In this document: one piece after another, positions 3,720 through 42,768 of the stretch
How positions within the stretch are numbered: position 1 is the stretch's first letter
Layout: each line of letters opens with the position of its first letter
IMG/VR virus record: IMGVR_UViG_3300046779_001955
Location: 10,116 to 74,115 of that record
Source of the DNA: a virus
Lineage: Duplodnaviria > Heunggongvirae > Uroviricota > Caudoviricetes
Length of the DNA stretch: 64,000 bases
Direction: 5' to 3' (one strand)
The notes under the pieces: model-generated
Told to the model about the DNA's origin: nothing
The model's database searches: none
The model's input: the letters and a program-made list of their open reading frames with translations, nothing else
Position numbers and translations under genes: made by a program

Positions 3720-4867
3720 AGAAGTTTTGCCAGTGTGCTTAGATAATTTCCTGTGTTCTTTTGAGCACTTAATAAGTCAAGTAAATCAGGATTTTGTCTA
3801 GCAATAAGTTTTTTACTAATTGCCGAATTCAACATTTGATCAATTTGATCTTTCCATGGCAACATTAAAAATTGTTTTAGAATGTTGATATCTCTCAATG
3901 GCGTAAAGGTCAAGGTGTTGCCAAGATGCCAGTGTTGGTGATCATTAGCAGCACATTCTAAAATGTGTTTGCGTAATGCCATAATATCAGATACCGGATG
4001 ATCTACTTGGCTTTGATACTTTTTCTGATTGTCTTCAATCATAAAGTACTCCCGATGCAGATAATTTTGATTTTTCAGCAGCTGATTTATTGAAGTACCA
4101 TGATGCATTGCCAACAAGTTTCCCATCTCAGGATTGCGCAAGGTAAATTCGTCTCCAGGGCATCCACTTACCAAAACAGTGGGCTTGATCCAATGGTGCA
4201 TTTGTTTGTAAGCCCAGTGATTAGATACTATAGTGTGATGATTACATACCCAAAAACGATCAAATTCAAGGTGTTCAGCTAATACTACTTCGTGTGGTAT
4301 TTCTAGTTTTTGTAAGTAACCCAACATCAAAGTAGTGTCAATACCACCACTCAGAAATATTTTTACTGGAAGATTATTGTAACTAAAAAAGTAATCAAAT
4401 TTTTCTGTTAGTATCTCATCAACATATTCAATCACCTCATCAACAGTTCTCTCTTGGGTTGGTACCTCAGTGATAACGTCAACACCGTCAGTTTTGAATG
4501 TAAGATCCTTGTTTAAAGTCAGTAAACTATCGGCAAAAATCTTTCGACTGAGTGGACAAAGATTTGTTACACCAAAGTTAGGATCATACCACAGTGGAAA
4601 ACTTCGGTACAAACTATGACGAACTTGAGCAGTTTCGTCAGATAAAATTATAATACAGTAGTTTCCACTTCGTGTAACATTGTTGTCAACAATATTGTAA
4701 ATTTCTAGATCAAGATCACCGTGATCAAGATACCCTTTGTAAGCTATAGTTTCTCGATTATGCTCAAGTATATTCCAACCTTGATCCATGTCAAGATGCC
4801 AACCGCGATGGTAATGTCCGTTGACACTAAAATTTAACTTTGGTGATCTGCTAATTGAAAAAAACAT
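3716..4867 (-). CDS. asparagine synthetase-like PP-loop ATP pyrophosphatase (amide/lactam synthetase-like), no N-terminal Cys nucleophile
   Basis: SGGIDTT PP-loop motif mid-protein (~res 172) as in AsnB C-domain; N-domain lacks Cys2; 4-nt overlap with radical SAM gene. Confidence 0.7.
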   Translation of the reverse strand: MFFSISRSPKLNFSVNGHYHRGWHLDMDQGWNILEHNRETIAYKGYLDHGDLDLEIYNIVDNNVTRSGNYCIIILSDETAQVRHSLYRSFPLWYDPNFGVTNLCPLSRKIFADSLLTLNKDLTFKTDGVDVITEVPTQERTVDEVIEYVDEILTEKFDYFFSYNNLPVKIFLSGGIDTTLMLGYLQKLEIPHEVVLAEHLEFDRFWVCNHHTIVSNHWAYKQMHHWIKPTVLVSGCPGDEFTLRNPEMGNLLAMHHGTSINQLLKNQNYLHREYFMIEDNQKKYQSQVDHPVSDIMALRKHILECAANDHQHWHLGNTLTFTPLRDINILKQFLMLPWKDQIDQMLNSAISKKLIARQNPDLLDLLSAQKNTGNYLSTLAKLL

Positions 4868-5454
4868 TATTGTCTCTTGTTTATGACTTTATCTGCTAGT
4901 CCGTATGCCACAGCATCTTCGGCGGTCATGAAATTGTCTCGTTCCATATCCTTTTCAAGTTCACTATAATCCTTACCAGTGTGCGTAGCGTAGATATCAG
5001 TCAAAACTTTTTTCCAACGCAGCAATTCTCGTGCTTGAATTTCAACGTCAGTTGCTTGCCCTGATGCACCACCTAGGGGTTGATGAATCATGTGTCGAGC
5101 ATTGGGTAGAATGAACCTGTGTCCGTGTGCCCCGGCCATTGCCAGTAAAGAACCCATGCTGGCTGCTTGGCCCAACACAATAGTATGTATCGGACAACGC
5201 ACAAATTGCATAGTATCATAGATACTCATACCTGCTGTGACACTGCCGCCCGGTGAGTTAATGTAAAAATTAATGGGCTTGTCAGGATCTTCGCTTTCTA
5301 GGAATAGCATTTGAGCTACGATCAGGCTAGCTGAGTGACTTGAAACTTCGGTATCTAGCATGATTACACGGTCCTTTAGCAGCCTAGAATAGATATCATA
5401 GCTGCGCTCGCCCTTGGAAGTGTGCTCGATTACTATGGGAACCAGGTTTGGCAT
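4867..5454 (-). CDS. clpP: ATP-dependent Clp protease proteolytic subunit ClpP
   Basis: [23 protein letters not shown] motifs; start at ATG 5454 with AAGGAG SD (ORF-track start 5511 is an upstream extension). Confidence 0.95.
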
Positions 5455-5482
5455 TACGTCTCCTTGTTTAGATAAGTAAAGT

Positions 5483-5511
5483 ATTATAACATAACATCCA
5501 ATGATACGCAA
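5483..5511 (-). promoter_or_regulatory. candidate promoter for clpP (TTGCGT-17-TATAAT)
   Basis: revcomp TTGCGTatcattggatgttatgtTATAAT upstream of clpP SD. Confidence 0.4.
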
Positions 5512-7069
5512 GATTCTTGATCAACTCAGCTTTTTAACTGAAAGTACTGGTTTAGCCAATCGCAAACCCGGTGATGTTTTTGCCGATCCTGAAGGCAACG
5601 AGATACGTTTTCAAAGTATTGATTTCTTTCCCCCTGGTGGTGGCAAATATCAAACATCTGAAGAAACACAGAAAGCCATTGACATTGCAATCAAATCTAT
5701 TGGCGTAACACCAATAGAAACAAATTGGTTTCGTGGGTCAACTCGATCATTTGGCATAGCACAATTCCAAGATGCACAAGGGAATCCCTTGGCATTTATT
5801 AGATATTTTGACAAAGAACTTAGTGCTGATCCTAGAGGTAACTATTGGGATAATCAAGGGGGTATACCAGGCTATCGCTATCAGGGCAAAGCTGCTGTAA
5901 AAACTCAGAGCAACGCCACGCCCCAGGATATTTTGACTCAACTAGATGATCTAACTCCTGCAGATATTTTGCGTCAAGTCGAAGAAAAGTTCCCAGGTAG
6001 TAATTTGGTAACAGTTACACAGCATTTGGTGTCAGGTGGTGAGTTACCATTTACTTTTATGCGGCCGCAAGAGATGGATATCTCGGCATTTCAAGATTAT
6101 TTTTGTGAGCTATTACAACCAATCGCGCTACAAACCGGACAGTTTGAAGGTGAAGCTGCGGCTGCTGCATTGGCATTTTTGCCTGATGGAGGTTTTTCTG
6201 ATACTACTATTAACTTCAGTACCAGTAAGACCGAAGGACTCAGTGATTCTATAATGACTGCTCCCGATGGCAGATCAATCAAAGTCAGTAGCAAGGGAGG
6301 TAAAGGTGCACCAGCTTCAGTGGTCAACATTCTCAATGCCTATGACGAATTACAACGCACAGCCAACGGACGCAAATTAACTAAAAAACTAATCAACACA
6401 GTTGAAATTCTCAACACAATCAAAAACACAGGCCAGGCTGAAGGTCCGTTGGTGTTGGCACAACAGTTTGGTATAATCACAGAAAAAGACGCAGAATTTA
6501 TTCGAGCACTCAAGCAAGTAAGACCTTTGCCCTTGGACTCTTTCAAAGATGTCAGTATCAGAGGTAAACAACCTTCTAAAAACCTTGTAAAACTAGCCAA
6601 GGAACGCAACACTAAAGAACCCATGCAGGTAAACTTCTTTTACCATCTCATGGCCAGTGTTGCTTTCAAGGTAGCTGACTATGTCAACAACAAAACTGAT
6701 TTCGGCAAAGATACTGCTGTTATTCTCAACAACAGTGCCTTGATCCAAGTCTACACCAAAGTAACAGCCCGTGGACAACAATGGACATTGCAAAAGTTTG
6801 GTAGTAAGTGGCCTGGATCTATATTCAGTCCCATTGCACTTGATCCTTCCAAGTCATATTACAGCACAGGAATCAAACAAAAATTTACTTTTGATATGAA
6901 GCCTAGAAAGAAATCTTTAGATGATCCACAATCAGCTCATGCTGATATATCTGATCCTGACACTGAATTCAAACGCAGCAAAGTAAAAGCAGCGCAACCT
7001 GAATCACCGCTGGGTAGTGAAAAAACTCTAGGACGTCGCAGACGTCAACGTGCAAATACTGATACATGA
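5501..7069 (+). CDS. hypothetical 522-aa protein (plus strand, between the two clpP paralogs)
   Basis: long uninterrupted ORF; Arg-rich C-terminal tail RRRRQR; no recognised motif. Confidence 0.6.
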
Positions 7070-7611
7070 TCAGTGATATTAAATTTCTGTGCTTCTTCGG
7101 CGCTGAGCCAAATATCTTGCGGTGGTAGCAAATACGTGCGTATATCATCTTCGCTCATACCAGTACACTGTTGATAGTGATTAAGCATCCTGGTCTGTGT
7201 TAGATCAAATTCTTTGATCCTTGCAAATAATTCGTGTGCCTTGCCATCACTTTCCCAAGTAAACTGATGGCTCAATATTGATGTGTTAGGAGTTAAAACT
7301 CTACGTCCTGGTGCACCCGATATAAAGATCAGCAGTGCTGCCGAAGCAATTTGTCCCAGGCCAACTGTTTTAATTGGGGTCGGTGAACTCATCATTACAT
7401 CAATAAGAGCAAAGGCCGCGCTCATGTCACCACCCTCGCTACATATCATCAACAGTAATTCTTTCTTCTTTCGTCGTGTTACATAATTAGATTGAAGAAT
7501 CCATTCAATAACTGGTTTAACACTGTCTATGGTGATTTCTCCCATGAGAAGAAACATTCCCGAATCATTTATCGAAGACACTGCTACTTCATCATCTTTT
7601 TCTGCTGTCAT
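7045..7611 (-). CDS. ClpP-family protease paralog (ClpP2-like), catalytic triad apparently intact
   Basis: SEGG, GQIASAA (Ser), LSHQF (His), Asp near C-term aligned to ClpP triad. Confidence 0.8.
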   Translation of the reverse strand: MTAEKDDEVAVSSINDSGMFLLMGEITIDSVKPVIEWILQSNYVTRRKKKELLLMICSEGGDMSAAFALIDVMMSSPTPIKTVGLGQIASAALLIFISGAPGRRVLTPNTSILSHQFTWESDGKAHELFARIKEFDLTQTRMLNHYQQCTGMSEDDIRTYLLPPQDIWLSAEEAQKFNITDHVSVFAR

Positions 7612-7627
7612 GTAATCTCCGTGAAAA

Positions 7628-7666
7628 AGCCCAAGTACATTATAACATGTAACTTGGGCTTTGCAA
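7628..7666 (-). promoter_or_regulatory. hairpin (8-bp stem, 16-nt loop) plus T-run overlapping a TTGCAA-16-TATAAT promoter
   Basis: minus strand GCCCAAGT...ACTTGGGC TTTTT after lipoprotein gene; loop carries TATAAT; upstream of clpP2-like. Confidence 0.4.
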
Positions 7667-7679
7667 CTAGATTTGGTTA

Positions 7680-8273
7680 TTATTCAGCTGCGCGATTGGC
7701 GTTGGCATCCAATTCTTTGGTGACATCAGCAGCACGAATTTCGGTGGCTTTACGAGCACGAATTCCATCTTTACGTGCTTGTAATTTATTAGCATCGCCC
7801 ATGGGCAAAGCCACCAAAACATAACTACGGAAACGAGTACCCTCGGCAATGGTTCGAGTGTCTACGATCTCAACACCAGTTACATCAACCTGTGGACACA
7901 TTGAACGAATTGCAGTTTCACTGAGTTCGCTGCCACCGCTTTCATTGTCCATCATAAAGACTTTACTTTGCTGATCAACCTTGCCGCCTGCTGACATACA
8001 AATTTTGCCCATTGCCATGAGTTTGGCTTTGGTACGAGCCATCTCCATGTCACGACTTACTGAAGTGCCGTTTGCATAAACTGCACTGTCTGAACTAGGT
8101 ACTTTCTCCATCCATGCCGGAGCCTTGTCAATAGCACGTTCAGCATACTTAACCTGGCGCTCGCGTTCAGCATCAGCACGTTTTTCAAACTTGTCATTGG
8201 TTGTACTACAAGCTGACAAAGTTGCGGCAACTGCTGCAACAAAAACCAATCGATTCAACATTTTATACCTCAT
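7680..8273 (-). CDS. lipoprotein (LPP20-like?)
   Basis: signal peptide with lipobox LSAC; 197 aa. Confidence 0.7.
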   Translation of the reverse strand: MRYKMLNRLVFVAAVAATLSACSTTNDKFEKRADAERERQVKYAERAIDKAPAWMEKVPSSDSAVYANGTSVSRDMEMARTKAKLMAMGKICMSAGGKVDQQSKVFMMDNESGGSELSETAIRSMCPQVDVTGVEIVDTRTIAEGTRFRSYVLVALPMGDANKLQARKDGIRARKATEIRAADVTKELDANANRAAE

Positions 8274-8395
8274 TATTTAGAAGAAATCCAATCGCCAACA
8301 CGACCTAAGTCTTTGCCAGCACCACTAATTGTACCACCTATTGTGCCACAGGCTGCTAGGCTTGTAACTAATAGGGCCAAAACTACAATACGCAT
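8273..8395 (-). CDS. small entericidin-like lipoprotein (40 aa), absent from ORF track
   Basis: MRIVVLALLVTSLAACGTIGGTISGAGKDLGRVGDWISSK; lipobox LAAC; G-x-G-x-D-x-G-R/N pattern like EcnA/B; TAATG overlap with downstream gene. Confidence 0.55.
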   Translation of the reverse strand: MRIVVLALLVTSLAACGTIGGTISGAGKDLGRVGDWISSK

Positions 8396-8419
8396 AAGAC
8401 CTCCATTGTACACGATAAA

Positions 8420-8986
8420 TTAAAAACGGTCAACCACTACCCATTCATTGGCATTGAGTTCGCATACAACACCTTGATATTGGCGCAGATGATCTCGATC
8501 CCAAGCTGGTTCCAGGAACCAACGACATTGCACACCGTTGTGCCAAAAACGATCAGGATAATTTGGATGGGGTCTAAATTGACTAGACTTACCAATCATA
8601 CCCGGCGATGTTTTTTTAATCATGTCAGCATCGGGATTGTCTGAGCATATCATTACTGAATCAGTAACAATTTGTTTTTTGCTCACACGATCGCGTACAT
8701 CGCGTTCGGCTTGCTGCACAGCCTGCGCACACATTTCGGTGCTGGGACGATTGCCATCCCATGTAACTTCACCGTGAGCCGGATGCCACTCGTTATTGAT
8801 TCGAGCACGAAACTCCACTGTACATTTCTTGCCACCGTTGACATCAGGTACTACCGCACGTCTCAAGTCGGCTCGTTCTTGGATGGTTACCTGTGTTCGA
8901 CTCACTGTTTTATCTTGCAAAACACAGTCAGCAGCACTGGCAGAAAGTGCAACCACACTCAGCAATGTTAGATATTTTACGGACAT
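8420..8986 (-). CDS. secreted/periplasmic protein
   Basis: signal peptide (ALSASAADC); 188 aa; several Cys. Confidence 0.6.
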   Translation of the reverse strand: MSVKYLTLLSVVALSASAADCVLQDKTVSRTQVTIQERADLRRAVVPDVNGGKKCTVEFRARINNEWHPAHGEVTWDGNRPSTEMCAQAVQQAERDVRDRVSKKQIVTDSVMICSDNPDADMIKKTSPGMIGKSSQFRPHPNYPDRFWHNGVQCRWFLEPAWDRDHLRQYQGVVCELNANEWVVVDRF

Positions 8987-9989: not shown

Positions 9990-10233
9990 TTATGTCTTGA
10001 CCTTGGCTTCTTTGGCCGCTGGCACCACTACCTGTTTCAATGATTCAGTGTAGGCTGTCCACGCATCATTTTGGGCACGAGCAAATTCAAAGCTGGCTTT
10101 GTGCACCACTTCAGCTGCTGAACGAACTTGTTCAGGCAAATAGGTAAGTGCAGTTTTTGCAGTTTTTTCCACTGAGTCAATGACTTCAGAAGCTTTGATT
10201 ATTTGAGTTGAATAAAATTTAGTAAAGTCCATT
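9990..10233 (-). CDS. hypothetical helical protein
   Basis: start at MDFTKFY with AAGGAG SD; Ala/Lys-rich helices (phasin-like look). Confidence 0.5.
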
Positions 10234-22104: not shown

Positions 22105-22545
22105 TTAGTTTGAGTAAGTGATTGCAATGCTCTTAGGCTTAATAACTTCAGGTAACTGACGCTCAAACCTTACAGTTAAAATACCATCGCGGCATACAGC
22201 ATCAACAACTTCAACATACTCACCCATGGTCCAGCTACGCATGAATTTACGATTACTGATTCCTTGATGCTTGTAGCTGTGTCCTTCGGGAAGCGCAGTA
22301 TCGCGCTTTTCACCAGTGATGATAACATCACCATCACGGGTAGCAACATCAATTTCACCTTGCGCAAAGCCAGCCACAGCAAGTTGTAGTTCAAAGGTAT
22401 TTTCGCCGGTTTCTACGATGTTGTAGGGAGGGTAGTTGTTATTGGCAGCATGATCAATTTGATTCATAATTCGATCAAATACGCGATCTACACCAATTGC
22501 ATTGCGGTAAAACGGGGTTAAATCAAAAGCAGTTACTTTAGTCAT
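22105..22545 (-). CDS. small heat-shock protein Hsp20 (IbpA-like)
   Basis: FDLTPFYRNAIGVDRVF ... GYPPYNI ... AVAGFA alpha-crystallin blocks; GAGGAG SD. Confidence 0.9.
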   Translation of the reverse strand: MTKVTAFDLTPFYRNAIGVDRVFDRIMNQIDHAANNNYPPYNIVETGENTFELQLAVAGFAQGEIDVATRDGDVIITGEKRDTALPEGHSYKHQGISNRKFMRSWTMGEYVEVVDAVCRDGILTVRFERQLPEVIKPKSIAITYSN

Positions 22546-22608: not shown

Positions 22609-22884
22609 TTATACACTAGATCCAAAATTTGTTTTATTATTTAGGTCAACTACAAAGCGCCATCTTCGTGCGGTGTAACTTCGTGGGTTCCAAGTCACAG
22701 TAAAAAAGGTATAAAGATTATCACTCTCAAAACAGACTCTATGAAATAATTTGACTGTTTTGGATGTGTAAGGAATTCCATACTTCTCGCTCCAGGCCTT
22801 GAGTTCGGTTTCAATTATGTTTAGGGCAATTGCAACAGAACGCATGTGCTGGTCACGGGTGGGCAATGCGAACTCAATGTACAT
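22609..22884 (-). CDS. hypothetical protein
   Basis: ORF overlapping S21 stop; start uncertain. Confidence 0.35.
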   Translation of the reverse strand: MYIEFALPTRDQHMRSVAIALNIIETELKAWSEKYGIPYTSKTVKLFHRVCFESDNLYTFFTVTWNPRSYTARRWRFVVDLNNKTNFGSSV

Positions 22885-23105
22885 CAGTAGAATTGACGAG
22901 GTAATTGTTGGCTGTTGAGGTATTTCTTCCAACGAGCACGAGCAGAATTGCGCTTGATTTTTCTAGCTGTGGTAGGTTTAGTGTACTGTTGACGCTCCCG
23001 CAGATTTATCAACAGTTGCGATTCTGCAACTTTTTTCTTGAGTTTACGCAACGCTTTGTCAACATTGCCATCTTGACCCACATAAACTACTAAACCTCGA
23101 CGCAC
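22884..23105 (-). CDS. rpsU: ribosomal protein S21
   Basis: 73 aa, VDKALRKLKKKV ... RERQQYTKPT ... RKIKRNSARAR pattern. Confidence 0.85.
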   Translation of the reverse strand: MRRGLVVYVGQDGNVDKALRKLKKKVAESQLLINLRERQQYTKPTTARKIKRNSARARWKKYLNSQQLPRQFY

Positions 23106-24304
23106 TAGATGTTCTCCTTTGGTGTAGGGGTATTTACCTGGTCAAGATCAATTTCTACTAACTTTATTTCACGATCTTGATAGTGTTTTAGATTGTACAT
23201 GTGTGGCAACAAGATACGCTCTAATTCACTGTGCAAGCCCCGTGCTCCAGTTTTATTTGCTCGAGTTCTGCGAGCTATTTCTCTTAGACTTTCTGATGTA
23301 AATTTTAGTTCCACACTGTCTTGTTCAAACAACCATTGATACTGTGAAATGTAATTGTGTTTGATATCAGTGAGAATTGAAATTAATTGATCCTCATCTA
23401 GATCTGACAATGTGACCCAGCTCGGAAAGCGTCCCACAAACTCAGGAATCATACCAAACTTCATTAGATCATCAGGCACAACTTGACTTAGACTCACGGA
23501 TTCTCGTGAACCAACATCAGCGGCGAAGCCCATGGCAGTACCTTGTACACGATTCTTTACAATGGTGTTAAGCCCAACAAATGCTCCACCGGCAATAAAC
23601 AAGATATTGCGAGTGTTGATTTCAATCATTTCAAAGTTGGGATTTTTACGTCCAGCAACTGGGCTTACTCTACAGGTTGTACCTTCAACAATTTTTAGCA
23701 ATGCTTGCTGAACACCTTCTCCGGATACGTCTCTTGTGATAGATGCCGACTCACTCTTACGTGCAATTTTGTCTATTTCGTCAATAAACACAATTCCGCG
23801 TTCGGTTTTTTCAACATCACCGTTGGCAGCAATCAGTAGTCTAGATATCAATGTCTCGACATCATCGCCTACGTACCCAGCTTCGGTTATTGAAGTGGCA
23901 TCTGCAATGGCAAACGGAACATCAAGATAACGTGCCACAGTTCGTGCCAATAGAGTTTTGCCCGAACCTGTGGGACCAAGCATTAACACATTGGATTTTT
24001 CTATTTCTACGTCAGTGCTGGTATTGCTGATACGTTTGTAGTGATTGACAATTGACACTGCCAACATGATTTTGGCTTGATCTTGCCCAATGACATATTG
24101 ATCTAAAAAGTTTTTTATTTCAATGGGATCAAGCCTGCGTTGAATATCAACCTTGGGTGTTTCTACTGTGTCGTTTCCTAGCAGTTCTTGACATAGATCC
24201 ACACATTCATTGCAAATACCAACATGATCACCTACTATTAATTTTTTGACCTGATCCTTGTGCTTACCGCAAAAATTGCAGTGGTTAAATTGTTCTTGAG
24301 CCAC
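23105..24304 (-). CDS. clpX: ATP-dependent Clp protease ATPase subunit ClpX
   Basis: N-terminal C4 zinc finger (CNFCGK...CNEC), Walker A GPTGSGKT, ClpX-specific blocks. Confidence 0.95.
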   Translation of the reverse strand: MAQEQFNHCNFCGKHKDQVKKLIVGDHVGICNECVDLCQELLGNDTVETPKVDIQRRLDPIEIKNFLDQYVIGQDQAKIMLAVSIVNHYKRISNTSTDVEIEKSNVLMLGPTGSGKTLLARTVARYLDVPFAIADATSITEAGYVGDDVETLISRLLIAANGDVEKTERGIVFIDEIDKIARKSESASITRDVSGEGVQQALLKIVEGTTCRVSPVAGRKNPNFEMIEINTRNILFIAGGAFVGLNTIVKNRVQGTAMGFAADVGSRESVSLSQVVPDDLMKFGMIPEFVGRFPSWVTLSDLDEDQLISILTDIKHNYISQYQWLFEQDSVELKFTSESLREIARRTRANKTGARGLHSELERILLPHMYNLKHYQDREIKLVEIDLDQVNTPTPKENI

Positions 24305-26532: not shown

Positions 26533-26561
26533 ATTATACCAAGTTTTTGGTAAACTGTCAA
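26533..26561 (-). promoter_or_regulatory. consensus sigma70 promoter TTGACA-17-TATAAT
   Basis: revcomp TTGACAgtttaccaaaaacttggTATAAT; fires into 370-nt ORF-poor region. Confidence 0.65.
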
Positions 26562-27374: not shown

Positions 27375-27608
27375 TCATTTTACAATTTCAATGGTGTTAC
27401 CAAGGGCAAATTGCTCTACTCGGTGTTGATCAAAACATTTGGGACAAAGACAATTGTTGCCGGGTCCGCCCATGCCCGAGATTATAGTTCCGCATCTACT
27501 GCAAGATCTTACGGCTGCTGTAGAGATCATACCGGGTATAGGCGGAGGTATAACGCGATATTGGTTTTTCCCGCAGGGTGTATAGCCTATAATTCCTAAG
27601 TCGTCCAT
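27375..27608 (-). CDS. zinc-ribbon small protein
   Basis: CGK...CSRC...CLCPKC cysteine pairs; start at MDDLG. Confidence 0.5.
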   Translation of the reverse strand: MDDLGIIGYTPCGKNQYRVIPPPIPGMISTAAVRSCSRCGTIISGMGGPGNNCLCPKCFDQHRVEQFALGNTIEIVK

Positions 27609-27904
27609 TTTAATAACCACCATTGAATGTCATTGTAATTGGTAAATCCCCAACACTCTTGATTGTCTTGATTGTTACTCCAAAAGCATCGAACATACCC
27701 TTGTAAATTTTCTCTACACCAAGACCAGTAGTCTGTCTTGGTTGTTCCGGAGGCATTACGAACTTGCCCGACTGTTACAAACCATCCACATAGTGTAGAG
27801 TGTAAATCATGTTCGGGAATCCATAGTGGACTAGCTGGATCAACAGAAACTCCATTAAAATTTCTATCTATCCACTCAATGAATTCTTCTCTGGTTTGTA
27901 TCAT
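27596..27904 (-). CDS. LRW-tail small-protein paralog A (ends LLKWTT)
   Basis: Trp-rich; start at ATG 27904 forming ATGA overlap with paralog B stop. Confidence 0.55.
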   Translation of the reverse strand: MIQTREEFIEWIDRNFNGVSVDPASPLWIPEHDLHSTLCGWFVTVGQVRNASGTTKTDYWSWCRENLQGYVRCFWSNNQDNQECWGFTNYNDIQWWLLKWTT

Positions 27905-28134
27905 GCCCACCTCAAGGCAAATATACTGTAGGTTTTGGCATTGGGAATTGTAACAACCATGCCTTCTACTGACGAATTGTACTTTTGACACCAACGTCGG
28001 AGGTCAGTGTAATGTTCGTTCCAAAAAGTTATGTCTGACAGTATCACTGTGTACTCTAAAAAGTCATAACCTAACTCCAAGGGCGAATGTGTAATAAAAC
28101 GTCGTCGATGTGGATTGTCATAAACTACAGTCAT
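27901..28134 (-). CDS. LRW-tail small-protein paralog B
   Basis: ends IFALRWA; ATG within conserved GAGGTGGTCATGA junction. Confidence 0.6.
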   Translation of the reverse strand: MTVVYDNPHRRRFITHSPLELGYDFLEYTVILSDITFWNEHYTDLRRWCQKYNSSVEGMVVTIPNAKTYSIFALRWA

Positions 28135-28334
28135 GACCACCTCAACGCAAATAGTGTAGCATCAGTTTGATGAGCAAAGTAATAGACTCTATGAAACTCG
28201 TCTTTGTCATAGGGCACATCCCAATCCCAATCACGTTCATCTATGTTCTTAGACAACCATACAAGAAGATTCATAAAATGATCCTGTCCCTTCCAAGGCA
28301 TGGCTACTGGAATATTACACCAGTCTGCTTTCAT
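28131..28334 (-). CDS. LRW-tail small-protein paralog C
   Basis: ends LFALRWS; ATGA-coupled. Confidence 0.6.
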   Translation of the reverse strand: MKADWCNIPVAMPWKGQDHFMNLLVWLSKNIDERDWDWDVPYDKDEFHRVYYFAHQTDATLFALRWS

Positions 28335-28513
28335 GCCCACCTCAACAAGTATAACATATAATCTGATTTATTACGAAAACAAACATATCCACGATTTCGC
28401 CACCACGATCGATTCAGGGCGTAGCCGGTGTCGGGGCCGATATCACCAAAAGTTTGGCGACACCATTCTATCCTGGCGTATGCTTCGGGCATCTTTGCTC
28501 GGTAATAGGTCAC
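28331..28513 (-). CDS. LRW-tail small-protein paralog D (GTG start)
   Basis: ends LYLLRWA; GTGA junction in same position. Confidence 0.55.
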   Translation of the reverse strand: MTYYRAKMPEAYARIEWCRQTFGDIGPDTGYALNRSWWRNRGYVCFRNKSDYMLYLLRWA

Positions 28514-28692
28514 AACCACCTCAAATGAAAAAGCATAATGTTAGCTTCACCGTAGATCACAACGTCATGATGAACAGCATTGTATTCCCAAGGGCCGCCG
28601 TAGGTTCTGACTCCGTATGTGTGGACACACCAGTCCAAGATTTCTTTGCACATCACCCAATTCTTATGTGGTAGATGAAATAATTCTTTCAT
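28510..28692 (-). CDS. LRW-tail small-protein paralog E
   Basis: ends LFHLRWL; ATGA-coupled. Confidence 0.6.
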   Translation of the reverse strand: MKELFHLPHKNWVMCKEILDWCVHTYGVRTYGGPWEYNAVHHDVVIYGEANIMLFHLRWL

Positions 28693-28871
28693 GACCACCT
28701 CAACATAAACATCAGTGCTTCGTTTTCGTTCCCAAAAAAATAATCAATCTTGGACCGGTCGTAAGTGTTGTACCCGTCTTGGTGTACATCATTAGTGATA
28801 TAACTCGGACAATGCTGTTTGGCCCAATCAAGTGCCTGCCACATTGGATCGTAGGGCAAAGTCACTGTCAT
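28689..28871 (-). CDS. LRW-tail small-protein paralog F
   Basis: ends MFMLRWS; ATGA-coupled. Confidence 0.6.
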   Translation of the reverse strand: MTVTLPYDPMWQALDWAKQHCPSYITNDVHQDGYNTYDRSKIDYFFGNENEALMFMLRWS

Positions 28872-29125
28872 CGGCTATATTTTAACATGAACATCATACA
28901 GTCAGATTCTTTTTCAAAAATCAATCGTGCTGATCCTTTATCATATTTCAATACAGCTCCCCACATTGCAAGATGCTGATCGCGTTGTTCATACCATAAT
29001 TCTCGACTTGTTTGACCACCTGCAGGTAAAGAATCAACAAAGTTATCCCACCAGTCAGGTCTAGTTCTATGATCGTTGTCGATGATCACTACTTCTCTAG
29101 TAGTGTTAATTGGTAACTCAGTCAT
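28868..29125 (-). CDS. LRW-tail small-protein paralog G (variant tail MFMLKYSR)
   Basis: ATGA-coupled to paralog H. Confidence 0.55.
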   Translation of the reverse strand: MTELPINTTREVVIIDNDHRTRPDWWDNFVDSLPAGGQTSRELWYEQRDQHLAMWGAVLKYDKGSARLIFEKESDCMMFMLKYSR

Positions 29126-29352
29126 CGCCATCTCAATGCAAATTCCACAGCGTCTCTTTTGTTTTTAAATTCCCAACGAGTAGTATAATCATGCCAACTA
29201 TGAGTACGCTCGCGCCAGGGTGCAGAATTTTTCCGACCATAGCGATCGGCTAACCATGTCCAACGCTGATCATATTCTTCGTAGGTTCGAACCGAAGTCA
29301 CTACACTGTAACTCCAGAGTCTGCGATCCTGTCTACGCTGACTGCTGTTCAT
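29122..29352 (-). CDS. LRW-tail small-protein paralog H
   Basis: ends EFALRWR; first gene of array. Confidence 0.6.
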   Translation of the reverse strand: MNSSQRRQDRRLWSYSVVTSVRTYEEYDQRWTWLADRYGRKNSAPWRERTHSWHDYTTRWEFKNKRDAVEFALRWR

Positions 29353-29584
29353 CTCCGGGTTCCTTTATGACATCAAAGATATCACCGTATTCAACAAATG
29401 GTTCCATGCGATAGCTGTCACCCTGGCGTTCTGTTGCAGTGTAATACTGTTGCTCAAAAATTGGCTGTAACCAAATCCATCGGCCTGACACTGTACGACG
29501 TGGACGCCAGGCCCAGGTCCGACGCCAGGTATAGCAACCATCGTAATCAAAATGTTTTGCTGTGGGTGGTTTATAATAGAACAT
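29333..29584 (-). CDS. hypothetical Trp/Arg-rich protein
   Basis: 83 aa from ATG 29584. Confidence 0.45.
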   Translation of the reverse strand: MFYYKPPTAKHFDYDGCYTWRRTWAWRPRRTVSGRWIWLQPIFEQQYYTATERQGDSYRMEPFVEYGDIFDVIKEPGDEQQSA

Positions 29585-29744
29585 CGTCTTCACCGCGACA
29601 TTGATGTCTAAGTGCCAGCTTTTCTTTCAACCATATCTTGCCGCAATCCGCACAACGCCAGGCGGTACCGTCGCGACTAAAAGGATAATCTCTAATAGGA
29701 TGTGATCCTTGTTTGGTTGTGATTTTTTCTATCTTGGGTTCCAT
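29571..29744 (-). CDS. 57-aa C2HC/C2H2-like zinc-finger protein (not in ORF track)
   Basis: WRCADCGKIWLKEKLALRHQC; TAATG overlap with DNA ligase stop. Confidence 0.35.
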   Translation of the reverse strand: MEPKIEKITTKQGSHPIRDYPFSRDGTAWRCADCGKIWLKEKLALRHQCRGEDDVLL

Positions 29745-31138
29745 TACAATTTTTCTCCAACATCAAACCCACGGAAGCGTACAAATCTAGGGAATCGCAG
29801 TGAGTACGATCCGTCTTGGTTCTGTGTTACTGCATCGGCTTCTACTTCAACAATCTGACCCACGATATTATTTCCATTGACATGATGATTCCAAAACTCA
29901 TCTCTATCACTATCGCTGAGGCCACTACCAACATTGACGGTAATGTGTCGCCCGTTATCGGATCCCTCGCAAACGAGAGCTCCAAGTCGTCCCAGATTTC
30001 TTCCAGTGCCTTCTTCAAGATTGACAACCTCCAAGTCTACTGTGATTGTGGGTTTCCATTTCATCCAATTACTGCTGCGTTTACATTCGTAGTGTGCTTG
30101 AAGGTTCTTAATCATAATACCTTCAAAACCTTCTGCCACAGCGTCTTGTGCAAATTTTTGCATAGTAGATTTGCCAACTGAAGTGTCAAGATCTACTTCA
30201 ATACCTGGCATTATACGAACGCTGGGATTAGAATCTAACAAAGGACGCAGCAATTCAAGTTTTTCACTGCGACGTTCTTGTGATAATTGAATCTGTGATC
30301 CTCGTTTAAATGCATCAAGTGACACCCAGTCAAACACATAAAACTTTGAATCATTGGCATTGGCATCACGTTTACGACGTGCTTGCTTCATTAGGGTTTG
30401 AAAACTTTCGCCAACAATTTCACCGTCAAGAACTATTGGTGCACCATTGGCCAGTAATCGTTTGATTTCTAGTGCGTTACCAATGAGTTGATCTTCTATA
30501 ACACTGAAGTTTTCAAAGACCTTTCCGTTGCGACTGTATAGAGTAACTGCACCGTTATTGTCAATTACAGCCAACACACGAACACCATCAAGTTTGCATT
30601 CGATTCTGGCACGACCAGTCATCTTGTTGGGATGATCTGCAGAGTCTGTGGCCAATTGACAAGTAAACACTGGTATAGCCCAGTCGCTTTTACCTAGTAT
30701 CTTGTTCAGTGTTTTTTCACTAATGCCGCAGCGCAGACCTTTGATCAATACACGACGACACATGTCATTCCACTCTTGACTATCAAATTGGCGACTGCAT
30801 TCTTCCACCATTTGGCGCATGTGATTACCAGTGACTGAACGAGTGCGTAGTGCCTCGCATAGTGCCCAGAACTGTGGCCACGGATTGGGCTGACCTACAA
30901 TATTTTCAGTTTCAGGAACCTGTTTGATATTGTAAGTGTAAAAAGGATTGTATGCAAGATAGCAATTAAACAAAAAGATTTGAGCACTAGAGCTACCTAG
31001 TTTTGCAGCCATAAAGGCTTTTTCAATAACCCGTTCTTTGTGTAAGCGGCTATCTGAGCTTTCAAGATCATGGATCCAATCAGCTGCCACCGGTACTCCG
31101 TTAAAAGAAGTGTCTTTGGGATTGAACACTTGTGCCAT
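29744..31138 (-). CDS. ATP-dependent DNA ligase
   Basis: KxDG adenylation motif (ECKLDGVRV), OB-domain C-terminal region. Confidence 0.9.
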   Translation of the reverse strand: MAQVFNPKDTSFNGVPVAADWIHDLESSDSRLHKERVIEKAFMAAKLGSSSAQIFLFNCYLAYNPFYTYNIKQVPETENIVGQPNPWPQFWALCEALRTRSVTGNHMRQMVEECSRQFDSQEWNDMCRRVLIKGLRCGISEKTLNKILGKSDWAIPVFTCQLATDSADHPNKMTGRARIECKLDGVRVLAVIDNNGAVTLYSRNGKVFENFSVIEDQLIGNALEIKRLLANGAPIVLDGEIVGESFQTLMKQARRKRDANANDSKFYVFDWVSLDAFKRGSQIQLSQERRSEKLELLRPLLDSNPSVRIMPGIEVDLDTSVGKSTMQKFAQDAVAEGFEGIMIKNLQAHYECKRSSNWMKWKPTITVDLEVVNLEEGTGRNLGRLGALVCEGSDNGRHITVNVGSGLSDSDRDEFWNHHVNGNNIVGQIVEVEADAVTQNQDGSYSLRFPRFVRFRGFDVGEKL

Positions 31139-31172: not shown

Positions 31173-31201
31173 ATTATAAAGAATTATTCTTATTTGGTCA
31201 A
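31173..31201 (-). promoter_or_regulatory. sigma70-like promoter TTGACC-17-TATAAT upstream of ligase
   Basis: revcomp TTGACCaaataagaataattcttTATAAT; AAGGA SD follows. Confidence 0.6.
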
Positions 31202-40422: not shown

Positions 40423-42768
40423 TCATAATTTACAGGCCTCGCAGTCATCTTCGTAGTCTTCGGCTATTAGCATTTCATACTCACGTTTTAGTTGCTCCAA
40501 GGATTCAAGTTCGTCAGAGTCTTGACTTTTAGATCCTTGCTTGTTGATCAAACTATAGTAAAAAGTTTTAATACCCCAGTGGTGTGCTTGCATCAAATTC
40601 TTGGCAATCAATGTTGTAGGCACTTTGCGGTTAGCAAAGTGTGCAGGATTGTAGAATGTGTTTGTTGATATTGATTGGTCTACATAGGCTTGTAGCACTG
40701 CTGCTGTTTTGAGATATCCAACACAGTCAGTTTGATCCCACATCAATTGATATTTGTTTTTAAGTTTATGATAATCTGGTACTACTTGTGTAAATGATCC
40801 TGCTTTGGATTCCTTTACAGTAATCAAACTCATCGGTATCTCAATACCGTTAGTACTATTAATGACAACAGAACTACTCTCAACGGGAGCAATTGCCATA
40901 AGTGTTGCATTCCTAACTCCATAACGTTTCATATCCTCTCGTAGTGGTTCCCAATCAAGTTCAGGAGAAAAATCTGTTAATTCATTGGCTCCTTCGGCAC
41001 GTAGTTCCCAGGGGAAAGTACCTTGACCATACCTTGTACGATCGCTGTCTCGGCAGCGTCCACGTTCTCGAGCTAGCTCAACGGTAGCTTCTGTAAGATA
41101 AAACGCTTGGTGTTCGATCCACGATTTAACTTCTTTAAGAGCATCGTCGTCCCCATAATTGAGGCCTCGCTTGGCGTGCCAATAAGCAAGGTTTGTAATG
41201 CCAATACCAAGCGGCTGGATTTCTTCATTACTAAGGCGACTCTGTACGGAGAGAAAGTCTTGATAGTCAAGTATGTTACAGAGGCTGCGTTGAAGAATTC
41301 TACAAGCGCGGCGCATATCTTCCGGATGTCGGAACGCTCCCCAATTGATTGAGCCCAAGGTACAGAGTGCAATTCTTCCGGACTCATCATCTAATCTCCT
41401 GAATGGTCGGGTAGGTAAAAGTATTTCGCAACATAGGTTTGATTGATAAATTGTGTGCCATTCAGGATCAAACGGACCTTGATTCATTACATTGTCAATA
41501 AACACAAGATAGATGCGCCCTGTGTCTGTGCGCTCTTTTAAAATTCCACTTTTAAAAACTTCTTCTGCTGCAATAACTTTCCGGCGCAGCTTAGGATCTT
41601 TCTCGTATTTGACGTATAGATCTTCAAATCGTTGTGTGTCTCTGTAGAAAGCTTCATATAGGTCCGGTACTTCATTGGGATCAAAAAAGGTAATGTCTTC
41701 TTTATTCTTGAACCGTCTCCAGAAGAACGCAGAAAGAACCACCCCATAATCCATGTGTCTAACTCTTGTTTCTTCTGTGCCTTGATTGTTTTTAAGCACA
41801 ATAAGATCATCAAACTGATGATGCCAAATTGGATAGAACACAGTGGCACTGGCATTGCGAATACCGCCTTGTGAACAACTGCGAAGATCGCCAAACCATT
41901 TCTTTAGGAATGGAATCATTCCTGTGTGCATGATCTCGCCGCCGCGTATGGGTGAGCCCAATGGGCGTAAACGACCAATCTCCAAACCAATGCCAGCACG
42001 TTTGCTGGCATACTTGGCCATCATCTCCCCACTAGCAAATATGCTATCCAGATCGTCGTCACTGCGGATAAGAACACAACTGCTAAACTGTTTAGTAGGA
42101 GTTCCAAGACCAGCGAGCACAGGAGTAGCAAGGGTAAAAAGACCATCACTAGCAGCGTTGTAATACTCTTTGATATACCGCATTCGGGCAGTGTTAGGAT
42201 CTTCACGATGGAACACCGTGGCTGCTGCAACCATGTATCTGACCTGGGGAGTTTCATATATTTCCTTGGTACTGCGATTCTTGACTAGATATTTTTCAAT
42301 TAACTGTTCAATAGCCGCATAGCTGTACTGTTCATCGCGACTATGATCAATAATTTCATCCATGCGATCCCAGTCTTCTTCGGAATACCACTCCAACAGG
42401 TCCGGAGTGTACAAACCGGTCTCAACGTTTCGACAAACAATGTCATATAAACGTGGAACTTCATAACTTCCATAAACGTCTTTGCGTAGCATAGTCAGTC
42501 GTTGTTTACCGGCTACGTATTGATAATTGGTGTGTCCTACATCAGGATTTGCATCTACATCAATTAGATCCACACAGGCTCTAAGTGTAATTTCATCAAT
42601 TTCTCGGGTTGATATTCCGTCATAAAAATGTAGCTGTGCTTTTATTTCAATCATTGATTGGCTAACGTCTGCGGTTCCGGTGCAGACTTTGGCGATTTGA
42701 CCCTGCCATTTTTCTAGCGCCAAAGGCACACGGCTACCATCTCGTTTGACTACTGTGATTGTTGCCAT
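40423..42768 (-). CDS. nrdA: ribonucleotide reductase class Ia large subunit
   Basis: N-terminal ATP cone (VVKRDGSRVP), active-site Cys blocks, C-terminal CEAC. Confidence 0.95.
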   Translation of the reverse strand: MATITVVKRDGSRVPLALEKWQGQIAKVCTGTADVSQSMIEIKAQLHFYDGISTREIDEITLRACVDLIDVDANPDVGHTNYQYVAGKQRLTMLRKDVYGSYEVPRLYDIVCRNVETGLYTPDLLEWYSEEDWDRMDEIIDHSRDEQYSYAAIEQLIEKYLVKNRSTKEIYETPQVRYMVAAATVFHREDPNTARMRYIKEYYNAASDGLFTLATPVLAGLGTPTKQFSSCVLIRSDDDLDSIFASGEMMAKYASKRAGIGLEIGRLRPLGSPIRGGEIMHTGMIPFLKKWFGDLRSCSQGGIRNASATVFYPIWHHQFDDLIVLKNNQGTEETRVRHMDYGVVLSAFFWRRFKNKEDITFFDPNEVPDLYEAFYRDTQRFEDLYVKYEKDPKLRRKVIAAEEVFKSGILKERTDTGRIYLVFIDNVMNQGPFDPEWHTIYQSNLCCEILLPTRPFRRLDDESGRIALCTLGSINWGAFRHPEDMRRACRILQRSLCNILDYQDFLSVQSRLSNEEIQPLGIGITNLAYWHAKRGLNYGDDDALKEVKSWIEHQAFYLTEATVELARERGRCRDSDRTRYGQGTFPWELRAEGANELTDFSPELDWEPLREDMKRYGVRNATLMAIAPVESSSVVINSTNGIEIPMSLITVKESKAGSFTQVVPDYHKLKNKYQLMWDQTDCVGYLKTAAVLQAYVDQSISTNTFYNPAHFANRKVPTTLIAKNLMQAHHWGIKTFYYSLINKQGSKSQDSDELESLEQLKREYEMLIAEDYEDDCEACKL

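Follow-up and report, generated by a model that had tools for sequence, protein, structure and literature searches.

According to the linker-sequence model, which is said to go back to Susskind and Botstein in 1978 and to Botstein in 1980, short homologies at boundaries direct the exchange of whole functional modules between phages. The model was made for the large modules of lambdoid phages and has largely been replaced by random recombination followed by selection. In the hyperplastic regions of T4-type phages, conserved promoter-terminator cassettes (PeSL) mediate the shuffling of small variable genes by recombination (PMC2839356; PMC4122927). At the level of translation, intragenic Shine-Dalgarno (SD) sequences at ATGA overlaps promoted reinitiation in four of five Escherichia coli gene pairs, and in the majority of bacterial groups most overlapping pairs have an SD site ahead of the second gene's start (Huber et al., 2019; PMC6728339). 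Here, a tandem array of eight small overlapping genes (A to H) is described, which lies on the minus strand (29352-27596) of a 64,000 nucleotide (nt) stretch of Caudoviricetes DNA (IMG/VR record IMGVR_UViG_3300046779_001955, positions 10,116 to 74,115), referred to below as the window. Its junctions combine a conserved protein motif with a predicted ribosome-binding site.

The best overall explanation of the array, to which we assign a probability of roughly 0.6, is the following. Eight members of an unannotated small-protein family occupy a variable accessory slot of an uncultured large phage. Their C-terminal codons are selected as (T/C)TG AGG TGG NNA TGA, and the same 15 bases would serve three jobs: they end the protein, present GAGGUGG(UC) five bases before the next start, and overlap stop and start as AUGA. 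The array would be co-transcribed with a DNA ligase from one host-type promoter, and ribosomes would move on to the next gene by termination-reinitiation or else initiate strongly at each junction. Whole ATGA-to-ATGA cassettes would be gained, lost and reordered when junctions recombine unequally or ectopically, with reading frame and expression preserved each time. The proteins themselves would be separate small binders of host or phage macromolecules with a common hydrophobic core and differing surfaces, and each subfamily would be kept by purifying selection for its own target.

Junction codons and predicted ribosome-binding sites

The genes follow one another in the order H>G>F>E>D>C>B>A and encode proteins of 60-102 amino acids (aa), with starts assigned to the stop/start overlap with the upstream gene (Table 1). 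Six junctions are ATGA overlaps and one (E>D) is a GTGA overlap, as stated in the initial annotation. The size range of 53-102 aa given there stood apart from its lower end, which is the length of D counted from an internal ATG. Orthologs of D (for example P0011 and P0021) start with MT(Y)YRAKMPEAY, and the MTYYRAK start of P0011 supports the GTG in the overlap as the true start of D.

It had been proposed that a conserved block at the junctions provides the SD sequence of the next paralog. The block TTGAGGTGG(T/G)CATGA was found exactly at four of the seven junctions, and the pattern TTGAGGTGGNNNTGA was matched by five of them. When up to one mismatch was allowed, TTGAGGTGGNNNTGA occurred six times in the window, on every occasion at an array junction, while the mean count in shuffled sequences was 0.42 and six occurrences were reached in 0 of 100 shuffles. 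The junction repeats are repeat family D1, and five of the 12 GAGGTG sites in the window are array junctions. The proposal was upheld for five strong junctions; it failed at G>F, which has no SD sequence, and the site at H>G is weak.

To analyze codon usage at the junctions, 44 viral contigs carrying an F-type gene and several larger assemblies (about 50 contigs) were scanned in six frames with an iterated family profile. Between one and 13 family members were obtained per locus, always in the orientation of the gene by which the locus had been retrieved, with contiguous runs of up to nine. The same junction recurs in about 50 other phage contigs, whose arrays comprise 2-12 members. Among 224 non-redundant members, 168 overlap the next open reading frame (ORF), by 4 nt in 145 cases and by 1 nt in 23. 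Codons of the motif [LIMV]-x-W-x-stop were then compared with the rest of the same genes. AGG accounted for 46 of 65 arginine codons (71%) at the motif of overlapping members and for 36 of 466 (8%) elsewhere (p=1e-28), AGG being the rarest arginine codon of these genes outside the motif; in members without an overlapping neighbour it was used in six of 14 cases. The first motif codon, mostly leucine, ended in G in 81 of 99 overlapping members compared to 198 of 501 elsewhere (p=6e-15) and 12 of 27 in members without an overlapping neighbour (p=3e-4). The final sense codon was TCA in 47 of 87 members with a 4 nt overlap, which lengthens the complementarity to the 16S tail to GAGGUGGUC.

These data bear on the alternative that Leu-Arg-Trp is conserved for protein reasons only and that its likeness to an SD sequence is incidental. 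Leucine, the basic residue and tryptophan are indeed kept in members without an overlapping downstream gene (e.g. A, which ends LLKWTT), and all three sit in the terminal helix of the structural model. However, a strong bias of the synonymous codons to TTG/CTG and AGG is confined to members followed by a gene, TCA, which extends the pairing, is favoured as the last codon, and GGAG is contained in the C-terminal HFGVEE motif of a second family from these regions that is unrelated to the first. A protein-only origin of the motif is therefore very improbable. The protein does need leucine, the basic residue and tryptophan, as judged from their conservation in members lacking a following gene; in addition, a second constraint acts on the nucleotides and is seen in the use of TTG, AGG and TCA. 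The codon statistics show that the Leu-Arg-Trp codons are selected at the nucleotide level, which is consistent with their putative role as an SD site.

The junctions were also the strongest predicted ribosome-binding sites of the window. When a 16S 3' tail of the E. coli type was assumed, pairing at the five strong junctions ranged from -10.4 to -14.1 kcal/mol. For 50 other long genes of the window, most of which have AAGGAG- or AGGAG-type sites, the median was -3.5 kcal/mol and the strongest pairing -9.0 kcal/mol. Together with the codon bias this agrees with the initial view that the Leu-Arg-Trp codons supply an SD sequence. Several points weigh against it. The E. coli-type tail may not be that of the host, the codon counts treat members as independent of shared ancestry, and the gene calls in the loci are crude. 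Moreover, a good SD sequence is missing at two of the seven array junctions, H>G having a weak site and G>F none, and the genes persist nevertheless.

A comparable arrangement was seen in the second family (cluster c1), which is unrelated to the first and forms ATGA-joined tandem arrays in the same regions, in L002 (12070-13169) as well as in L012, L015, L021, L026, L028, L030, L033, L037 and L052. Three copies fill the slot in L002 that holds the LRW array in the window. The end of these proteins, (E)HFGVEE, is encoded by CAT TTY GGA GTT GAA GAA TGA, with a GGAG SD sequence within the Phe-Gly-Val codons ahead of the next ATG, which lies in an AATGA overlap. No Pfam or PHROG match was obtained for this family. 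The HFGVEE family appears to use the same design, suggesting a general principle and not a quirk of one family.

The ATGA overlap and the SD site fit translational coupling of the array genes, which is plausible from the sequence. RNA structure masking the SD sequence was scored in a window offset by three bases from the intended GAGGUGGNC, and no consistent pattern was found at the junctions. Strict coupling is therefore not implied. The very strong junction sites could also recruit ribosomes directly, each gene then being initiated independently.

A 73 aa homolog of ribosomal protein bS21 is encoded in the window (22884-23105, minus strand) directly after a ClpX-like ATPase (23105-24304, minus strand) and near an Hsp20 gene (22105-22545, minus strand); it is 79% identical to a protein of L002 that matches PF01165 at 1.7e-11. 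bS21 contacts the helix formed by the SD and anti-SD sequences (PMC9723584), and it may, as a speculation, be relevant to the exceptional strength of the junction sites. In L056 (9380-9784) and L057 (1451-1855), a 134 aa protein with a peptide chain release factor domain (PF00472, RF-1) is encoded immediately downstream of a 12-member array.

Paralogy, fold and extent of the family

The eight proteins are mutually 15-29% identical. Pairwise alignment without the last five to six residues gave no significant similarity (mean z 0.6), so that more than these eight sequences is needed to establish paralogy. Profiles were therefore built for the subfamilies of H, F, E, D and C and compared by hhalign after the x-L-R-W-x ending had been cut; they matched with probabilities of 95-98% and E-values of 1e-8 to 1e-12, except for F-E (53%). 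For G, B and A there were too few orthologs for good profiles, and the trimmed sequences were instead scored on a family profile lacking them, with 2000 shuffles each. G scored 14.5 bits, which was reached by 0 of 2000 shuffles (p<0.0005), while the score of B was reached by one (p about 0.0005) and that of A by nine (p 0.0045).

A profile of the eight cores retrieved 174 database proteins at E<=0.01, all of 51-102 aa and none with a Pfam domain. In this set, six of the eight paralogs have orthologs of their own, whereas B and G retrieved nothing besides themselves. When 1.84 billion cluster representatives were searched exhaustively with HMMER, 984 clusters (50% identity) matched at E<=1e-3, almost all of them metagenomic and nearly all of 50-105 aa. 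The only long match, P0247 (890 aa), is repetitive and of low complexity, has no aligned stretch and was considered a false positive. The ending L-[R/K]-W was present in 245 of 265 database members, and exactly one residue follows the tryptophan in 203 of 254 members with an L-x-W ending. As a caveat that weakens these counts, the iterated profile model has possibly drifted. In the arrays of L014 (2459-2813, cluster c3; 4094-4334, cluster c32), L012 (4635-5001, cluster c4) and L010 (4761-5001, cluster c31), genes of 80-145 aa were noted that are mostly unflagged by the family profile and end in the LRW-like motifs ...AKLMWS, ...FVLRWS, ...VVLRFGK and ...FLLKYR, respectively. The LRW family is probably broader than the counts given, with some members carrying N-terminal extensions.

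Common traits of the family are a single domain of about 55-65 aa, an invariant tryptophan in helix 1 and an F-x-L-[R/K]-W-x end; G fits only in the core. Of the seven LRW-like C-termini listed in the initial annotation, six are strict (x-L-R-W-x) and that of A is loose, while the ending is absent from G. The tryptophan-rich character and the recurring core noticed at that stage were confirmed, tryptophan making up 3.9-9.8% of the eight proteins and the core tryptophan of h-x-W-[C/A/L] being invariant across the alignment.

AlphaFold modelled paralog F with a predicted local distance difference test (pLDDT) score of 96.6 as beta1(2-6), alpha1(12-20), beta2(24-31), beta3(37-46) and alpha2(49-59). 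For paralog A, modelled with low confidence (pLDDT 64), the beta-alpha-beta-beta-alpha order was obtained at 41-100 after an extra N-terminal helix, the model being guided by the family alignment. Residues W16, F46, L57 and W59 (F numbering) are conserved family-wide and probably form the hydrophobic core, because all of them are aromatic or aliphatic. In addition, each subfamily has strongly conserved positions of its own, for instance Y24, D28, H30 and D43 in the F type, whose mean column identity is 72%. UniProt entry A0A6J7WHX3, an uncharacterized protein of an uncultured Caudovirales phage, is 70% identical to F (TM-score 0.99), and other uncharacterized UniProt matches from uncultured Caudovirales phages show 23-30% identity; such entries are unannotated members of the same family and uninformative on function. 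According to the models, each member would thus be one small beta-alpha-beta-beta-alpha domain whose last helix ends in F-x-L-[R/K]-W-x.

Selection was estimated from the ratio of nonsynonymous to synonymous substitution rates (dN/dS) against orthologs, which was 0.046 for F, 0.19 for E and 0.16 for A; in most other ortholog pairs dS was too saturated for an estimate. From these comparisons the ORFs evolve as coding sequence under purifying selection. The label 'rapidly evolving' given to the array initially does not hold at the sequence level, where dN/dS is 0.05-0.19, the divergence of the paralogs is old (15-29% identity) and six are conserved as traceable orthologs in other phages. What changes fast is the composition of the array, by gain, loss and reordering of cassettes. 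Recent duplication in place was considered and ruled out, since six of these old paralogs have closer orthologs in other phages.

It could be argued that only a DNA repeat at the junctions is shared and that the ORFs are unrelated or untranslated, as would fit the lack of significant pairwise similarity in the trimmed proteins. Yet the profile-profile matches persist after trimming, the shuffle tests back G, B and A, one member has a confident model of the common fold, dN/dS is far below 1 with saturated dS, and orthologs of six of the eight paralogs occur in other phages, so that this alternative is scarcely credible. Alignment, hidden Markov model and structure comparisons place the similarity beyond the junction at the profile level only, with F folding confidently. 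Taken together, the eight genes are true, anciently diverged paralogs, as had been suspected from the array itself, and belong to a single unannotated family whose members were all found on phage or phage-like contigs.

Cassette indels and proposed exchange between arrays

When genes were labelled by sequence cluster in the 44 contigs, the neighbours of the F-type gene were found to come from many subfamilies. Their order varies as well, F standing before E in the window and after E in L056, and copy number (1-13 members per locus) and subfamily content differ among phages. L002, whose ligase is 69% identical to that of the window phage, has the same flanking genes and different small genes in the slot, and in L055, another relative, an A-type ortholog lies in a different slot. 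In L049 (about 5200-8500), about 13 genes of 56-77 aa from two further families (c43, c65), mostly joined by ATGA, were observed after an F-type gene.

Between relatives of 80-99% DNA identity, whole cassettes are present or absent, with breaks exactly after the junction. In L040, TTTATATTGAGGTGGTCATGA is followed after the break by AAGACAAT, while in L034 TTTATATTGAGGTGGTCATGA is followed by 505 nt (two cassettes), TTTATATTGACTTGGTCATGA and, after the break, AAGATAAT. L036 and L035 differ by 547 nt between breaks after ATATTGAGATGGTCATGA and ATATTGGCCTGGTCATGA, and L022 and L027 provide two similar junction-bounded cases. A systematic scan gave 13 non-redundant insertions or deletions (indels) of 120-1500 nt, and in all 13 both ends were located 0-24 nt from a stop codon. 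Because all of them end near stop codons, at gene boundaries, the cassette unit runs from ATGA to ATGA. Exact repeats flanking the indels ranged from 5 nt (the ATGA region only) to 26 nt (TGTAATGTTTATATTGAGGTGGTCAT).

Recombination between junctions is possible because every cassette carries the same junction, and it would explain the strong differences in array content between related phages. It was therefore weighed against the alternative that the junction repeat has no part in recombination, being conserved for protein and SD reasons only, and that random illegitimate recombination occurs of which only indels at gene boundaries survive selection. In lambdoid phages, boundary-precise mosaicism without linker sequences is the prevailing view, which favours this alternative, as do several of the 13 indels, in which the flanking identity is only 5-6 nt and essentially ATGA itself (GATGA, GAATGA, TGATGA). 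Other events are flanked by junction repeats of 26 nt or of 19 matching nt in 21, and in the repeat-flanked events the surviving copy resembles a hybrid of both junctions, which weighs against this alternative. We consider a purely random origin possible but on balance unlikely.

Against a role of the junction as a seam it must be added, besides the short flanking identities, that boundaries of this kind could equally arise if breakage is random and only intact genes are kept by selection, and that cassette indels were observed in other loci only and none for the window's own array. Involvement of the junction is thus partly shown: the repeat is the obvious recombination substrate in several events, and elsewhere selection for intact genes explains the precision equally well. 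We tentatively propose, at odds somewhat below even, that the junction has evolved as a self-contained 'cassette connector', in which 15-21 bases would encode the end of a helix, recruit a ribosome and give in-register homology.

Genomic context, candidate function and comparison with known systems

Strong sigma-70-like sites on the coding strand around the array are limited to 31201-31173 and 26561-26533 (Table 1). No strong promoter-like or terminator-like site was detected at any array junction, and the overlapping genes leave no intergenic space. Because only two strong promoter-like sites flank the region, the array probably lies within one transcript of about 4.6 kb comprising the ligase, two small genes, the eight paralogs and four further small genes. 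The downstream site marks the next transcription unit and hence the likely end of the array unit, as far as consensus matches can tell.

Table 1. Genes, junctions and flanking features of the array in the window. SD, Shine-Dalgarno; energies refer to predicted pairing with the 16S 3' tail.
Feature	Coordinates	Strand	Description
Paralog H	29122..29352	-	76 aa, C-terminus FALRWR; ortholog P0109 80% identical
Paralog G	28868..29125	-	85 aa, C-terminus FMLKYSR, degenerate; supplies no SD site to F
Paralog F	28689..28871	-	60 aa, C-terminus FMLRWS; largest, most conserved subfamily (CPSYITND...KIDYFF)
Paralog E	28510..28692	-	60 aa, C-terminus FHLRWL; orthologs P0002, P0007
Paralog D	28331..28513	-	60 aa, GTG start in GTGA overlap, C-terminus YLLRWA; orthologs P0011, P0021
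Paralog C	28131..28334	-	67 aa, C-terminus FALRWS; orthologs P0001, P0004
Paralog B	27901..28134	-	77 aa, C-terminus FALRWA
Paralog A	27596..27904	-	102 aa, C-terminus LLKWTT; final array gene, N-terminal extension
Junction H>G	29122..29136	-	TTGAGATGGCGATGA, weakened, Arg = AGA; -4.1 kcal/mol
Junction G>F		-	...AAATATAGCCGATGA, no SD sequence
Junction F>E	28689..28703	-	TTGAGGTGGTCATGA: Leu-Arg-Trp-Ser codons, SD GAGGUGGUC, stop/start overlap; -14.1 kcal/mol
Junction E>D	28510..28524	-	TTGAGGTGGTTGTGA; -12.5 kcal/mol
Junction D>C	28331..28345	-	TTGAGGTGGGCATGA; -10.4 kcal/mol
Junction C>B	28131..28145	-	TTGAGGTGGTCATGA; -14.1 kcal/mol
Junction B>A	27901..27915	-	TTGAGGTGGGCATGA; -10.4 kcal/mol
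Sigma-70-like promoter TTGACC-17-TATAAT	31173..31201	-	11/12 consensus matches, intergenic before ligase ATG 31138; candidate by consensus only
ATP-dependent DNA ligase	29744..31138	-	first long gene of the unit; PF01068 9.6e-21, PF14743 1e-11
57 aa Cys-containing protein	29571..29744	-	conserved upstream flank of the variable slot; homolog at same position in L002; weak DUF7479 match only
83-86 aa gene	29333..29593	-	adjoins array upstream, 20 nt overlap with H, non-member; weak PHROG families of unknown function; cluster c127
82 aa Cys-rich gene	27375..27623	-	after array, overlaps end of A, non-member
Sigma-70-like promoter TTGACA-17-TATAAT	26533..26561	-	12/12 candidate, preceded by TG (extended -10); after 110 aa gene ending 26571

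The terminus of A (27596-27623) lacks the GAGG block, and its Trp-Trp-Leu codons (TGGTGGTTA) form an SD-like site (-9.1 kcal/mol). In the 82 aa Cys-rich gene, an internal ATG at 27608 lies five bases after this site (GGTGGTTAT) and may be the true start, giving a 13 nt overlap with A. The window phage is without close cultured relative, its ligase being at most 35% identical to that of any deposited phage and the large subunit of its ribonucleotide reductase (40423-42768) 53-60% identical to proteins of Xanthomonas, Ralstonia and Stenotrophomonas phages. No tRNA genes were found in the window.

The initial annotation did not recognise the family, and database searches with the eight proteins gave no Pfam-A match at E<=1, nothing better than E=0.099 in PHROGs v4 and a best, non-significant match of E=0.38 when the PDB was searched by sequence profile. 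Among 50,697 deposited phage records, no match was obtained by blastn of the region, by tblastn of F and D or by tblastn of 36 concatenated diverse members, a long query that weakens E-values. An F-type alignment found no relatives in 185,579 species-representative bacterial and archaeal genomes. Cluster members are labelled 'hypothetical protein' in every source giving names, and fold searches of BFVD and the PDB had no anti-defence protein among the best matches. PHIKZ014, a ribosome-binding protein of phiKZ (8cd1 chain v), was matched at E=0.87 with profile A3 and was rejected, its score falling from 13 bits to at most 4.7 with other family profiles.

That the proteins are small binders of RNA or small ligands, similar to the RNA recognition motif (RRM) or ACT domains, and modulate host or phage translation or metabolism is improbable. 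The ferredoxin-like beta-alpha-beta-beta-alpha-beta fold of RRM and ACT domains has a fourth strand that is absent from the array family, the fold scores are those of any small two-layer alpha/beta sandwich, no sequence match to RRM or ACT families was found, RNP motifs or ligand sites were not identified, and the PHIKZ014 lead faded with broader profiles. A second alternative holds that the eight proteins are subunits of one hetero-oligomer whose stoichiometry is fixed by the ATGA overlaps. Coupled overlapping gene pairs often encode subunits of complexes (PMC10666635), and small open-sheet domains could pair edge to edge. However, number, order and subfamily content of the arrays vary greatly among phages (1 to at least 12 members), and the genes next to the F type are of many kinds, which fits poorly to a fixed complex and leaves little likelihood for this arrangement.

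We infer, as a tentative and rather doubtful reading, that separate binders of host or phage targets have arisen by diversification of a stable mini-scaffold and are expressed from a host-type promoter; this binder function is the weakest step of the best explanation. The host-takeover or anti-defence cassette suggested initially would be one plausible version of it, with a putative anti-host role on which only the distribution of the family, the small size of the proteins and the early-type operon context bear.

If the proposed exchange is true, lytic phages would be able to assemble and reshuffle expressed accessory-gene arrays without an integrase, and would thereby have a concrete route by which an accessory region could change gene content quickly without losing expression. 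A large family of about a thousand clusters at 50% identity had escaped annotation, and the junction motif together with the family profile can be used to find such arrays in metagenomes. Being small, well folded and diversified, the proteins are candidates for host-takeover and anti-defence screens. A C-terminal motif that would also be a ribosome-binding site and a seam places several constraints on one short sequence and revives the 'linker' idea. For phage genomics the relevance is moderate to high, in other fields modest.

ATGA/SD coupling and shuffled arrays of small genes in phage hyperplastic regions are already known. New is a conserved boundary element within coding sequence, a protein motif with a translation signal that is inherited with each member. 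Homology at boundaries is shared with the linker model; here, however, the 'linker' is a defined block of 15-21 nt with a coding and translational function of its own. With the PeSL of T4-type phages the array has in common short conserved repeats that border small non-essential genes, indels or replacements bounded by these repeats between close relatives, and a repeat that carries an expression signal, so that a gene keeps its expression when it is moved (Arbiol et al., 2010, PMC2839356; Comeau et al., 2014, PMC4122927). Repeat-bounded indels were seen in L034/L040, L035/L036 and L022/L027, but not in all 13 events. PeSL are intergenic transcription signals, consisting of a sigma-70-type promoter and a terminator, whereas the array repeat is an intra-coding translation signal, and the promoter and stem-loop that lie between genes shuffled by PeSL have no counterpart at the array junctions. 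The coupled ATGA pairs (PMC6728339) likewise consist of co-directional genes with a 4 nt overlap and an SD sequence that lies at most about 12 nt before the start, in the 3' end of the preceding gene. In contrast to these pairs, the SD sequence of the array is built into a family-wide C-terminal motif that can serve any following gene, and the predicted sites greatly exceed in strength those of other genes of the phage.

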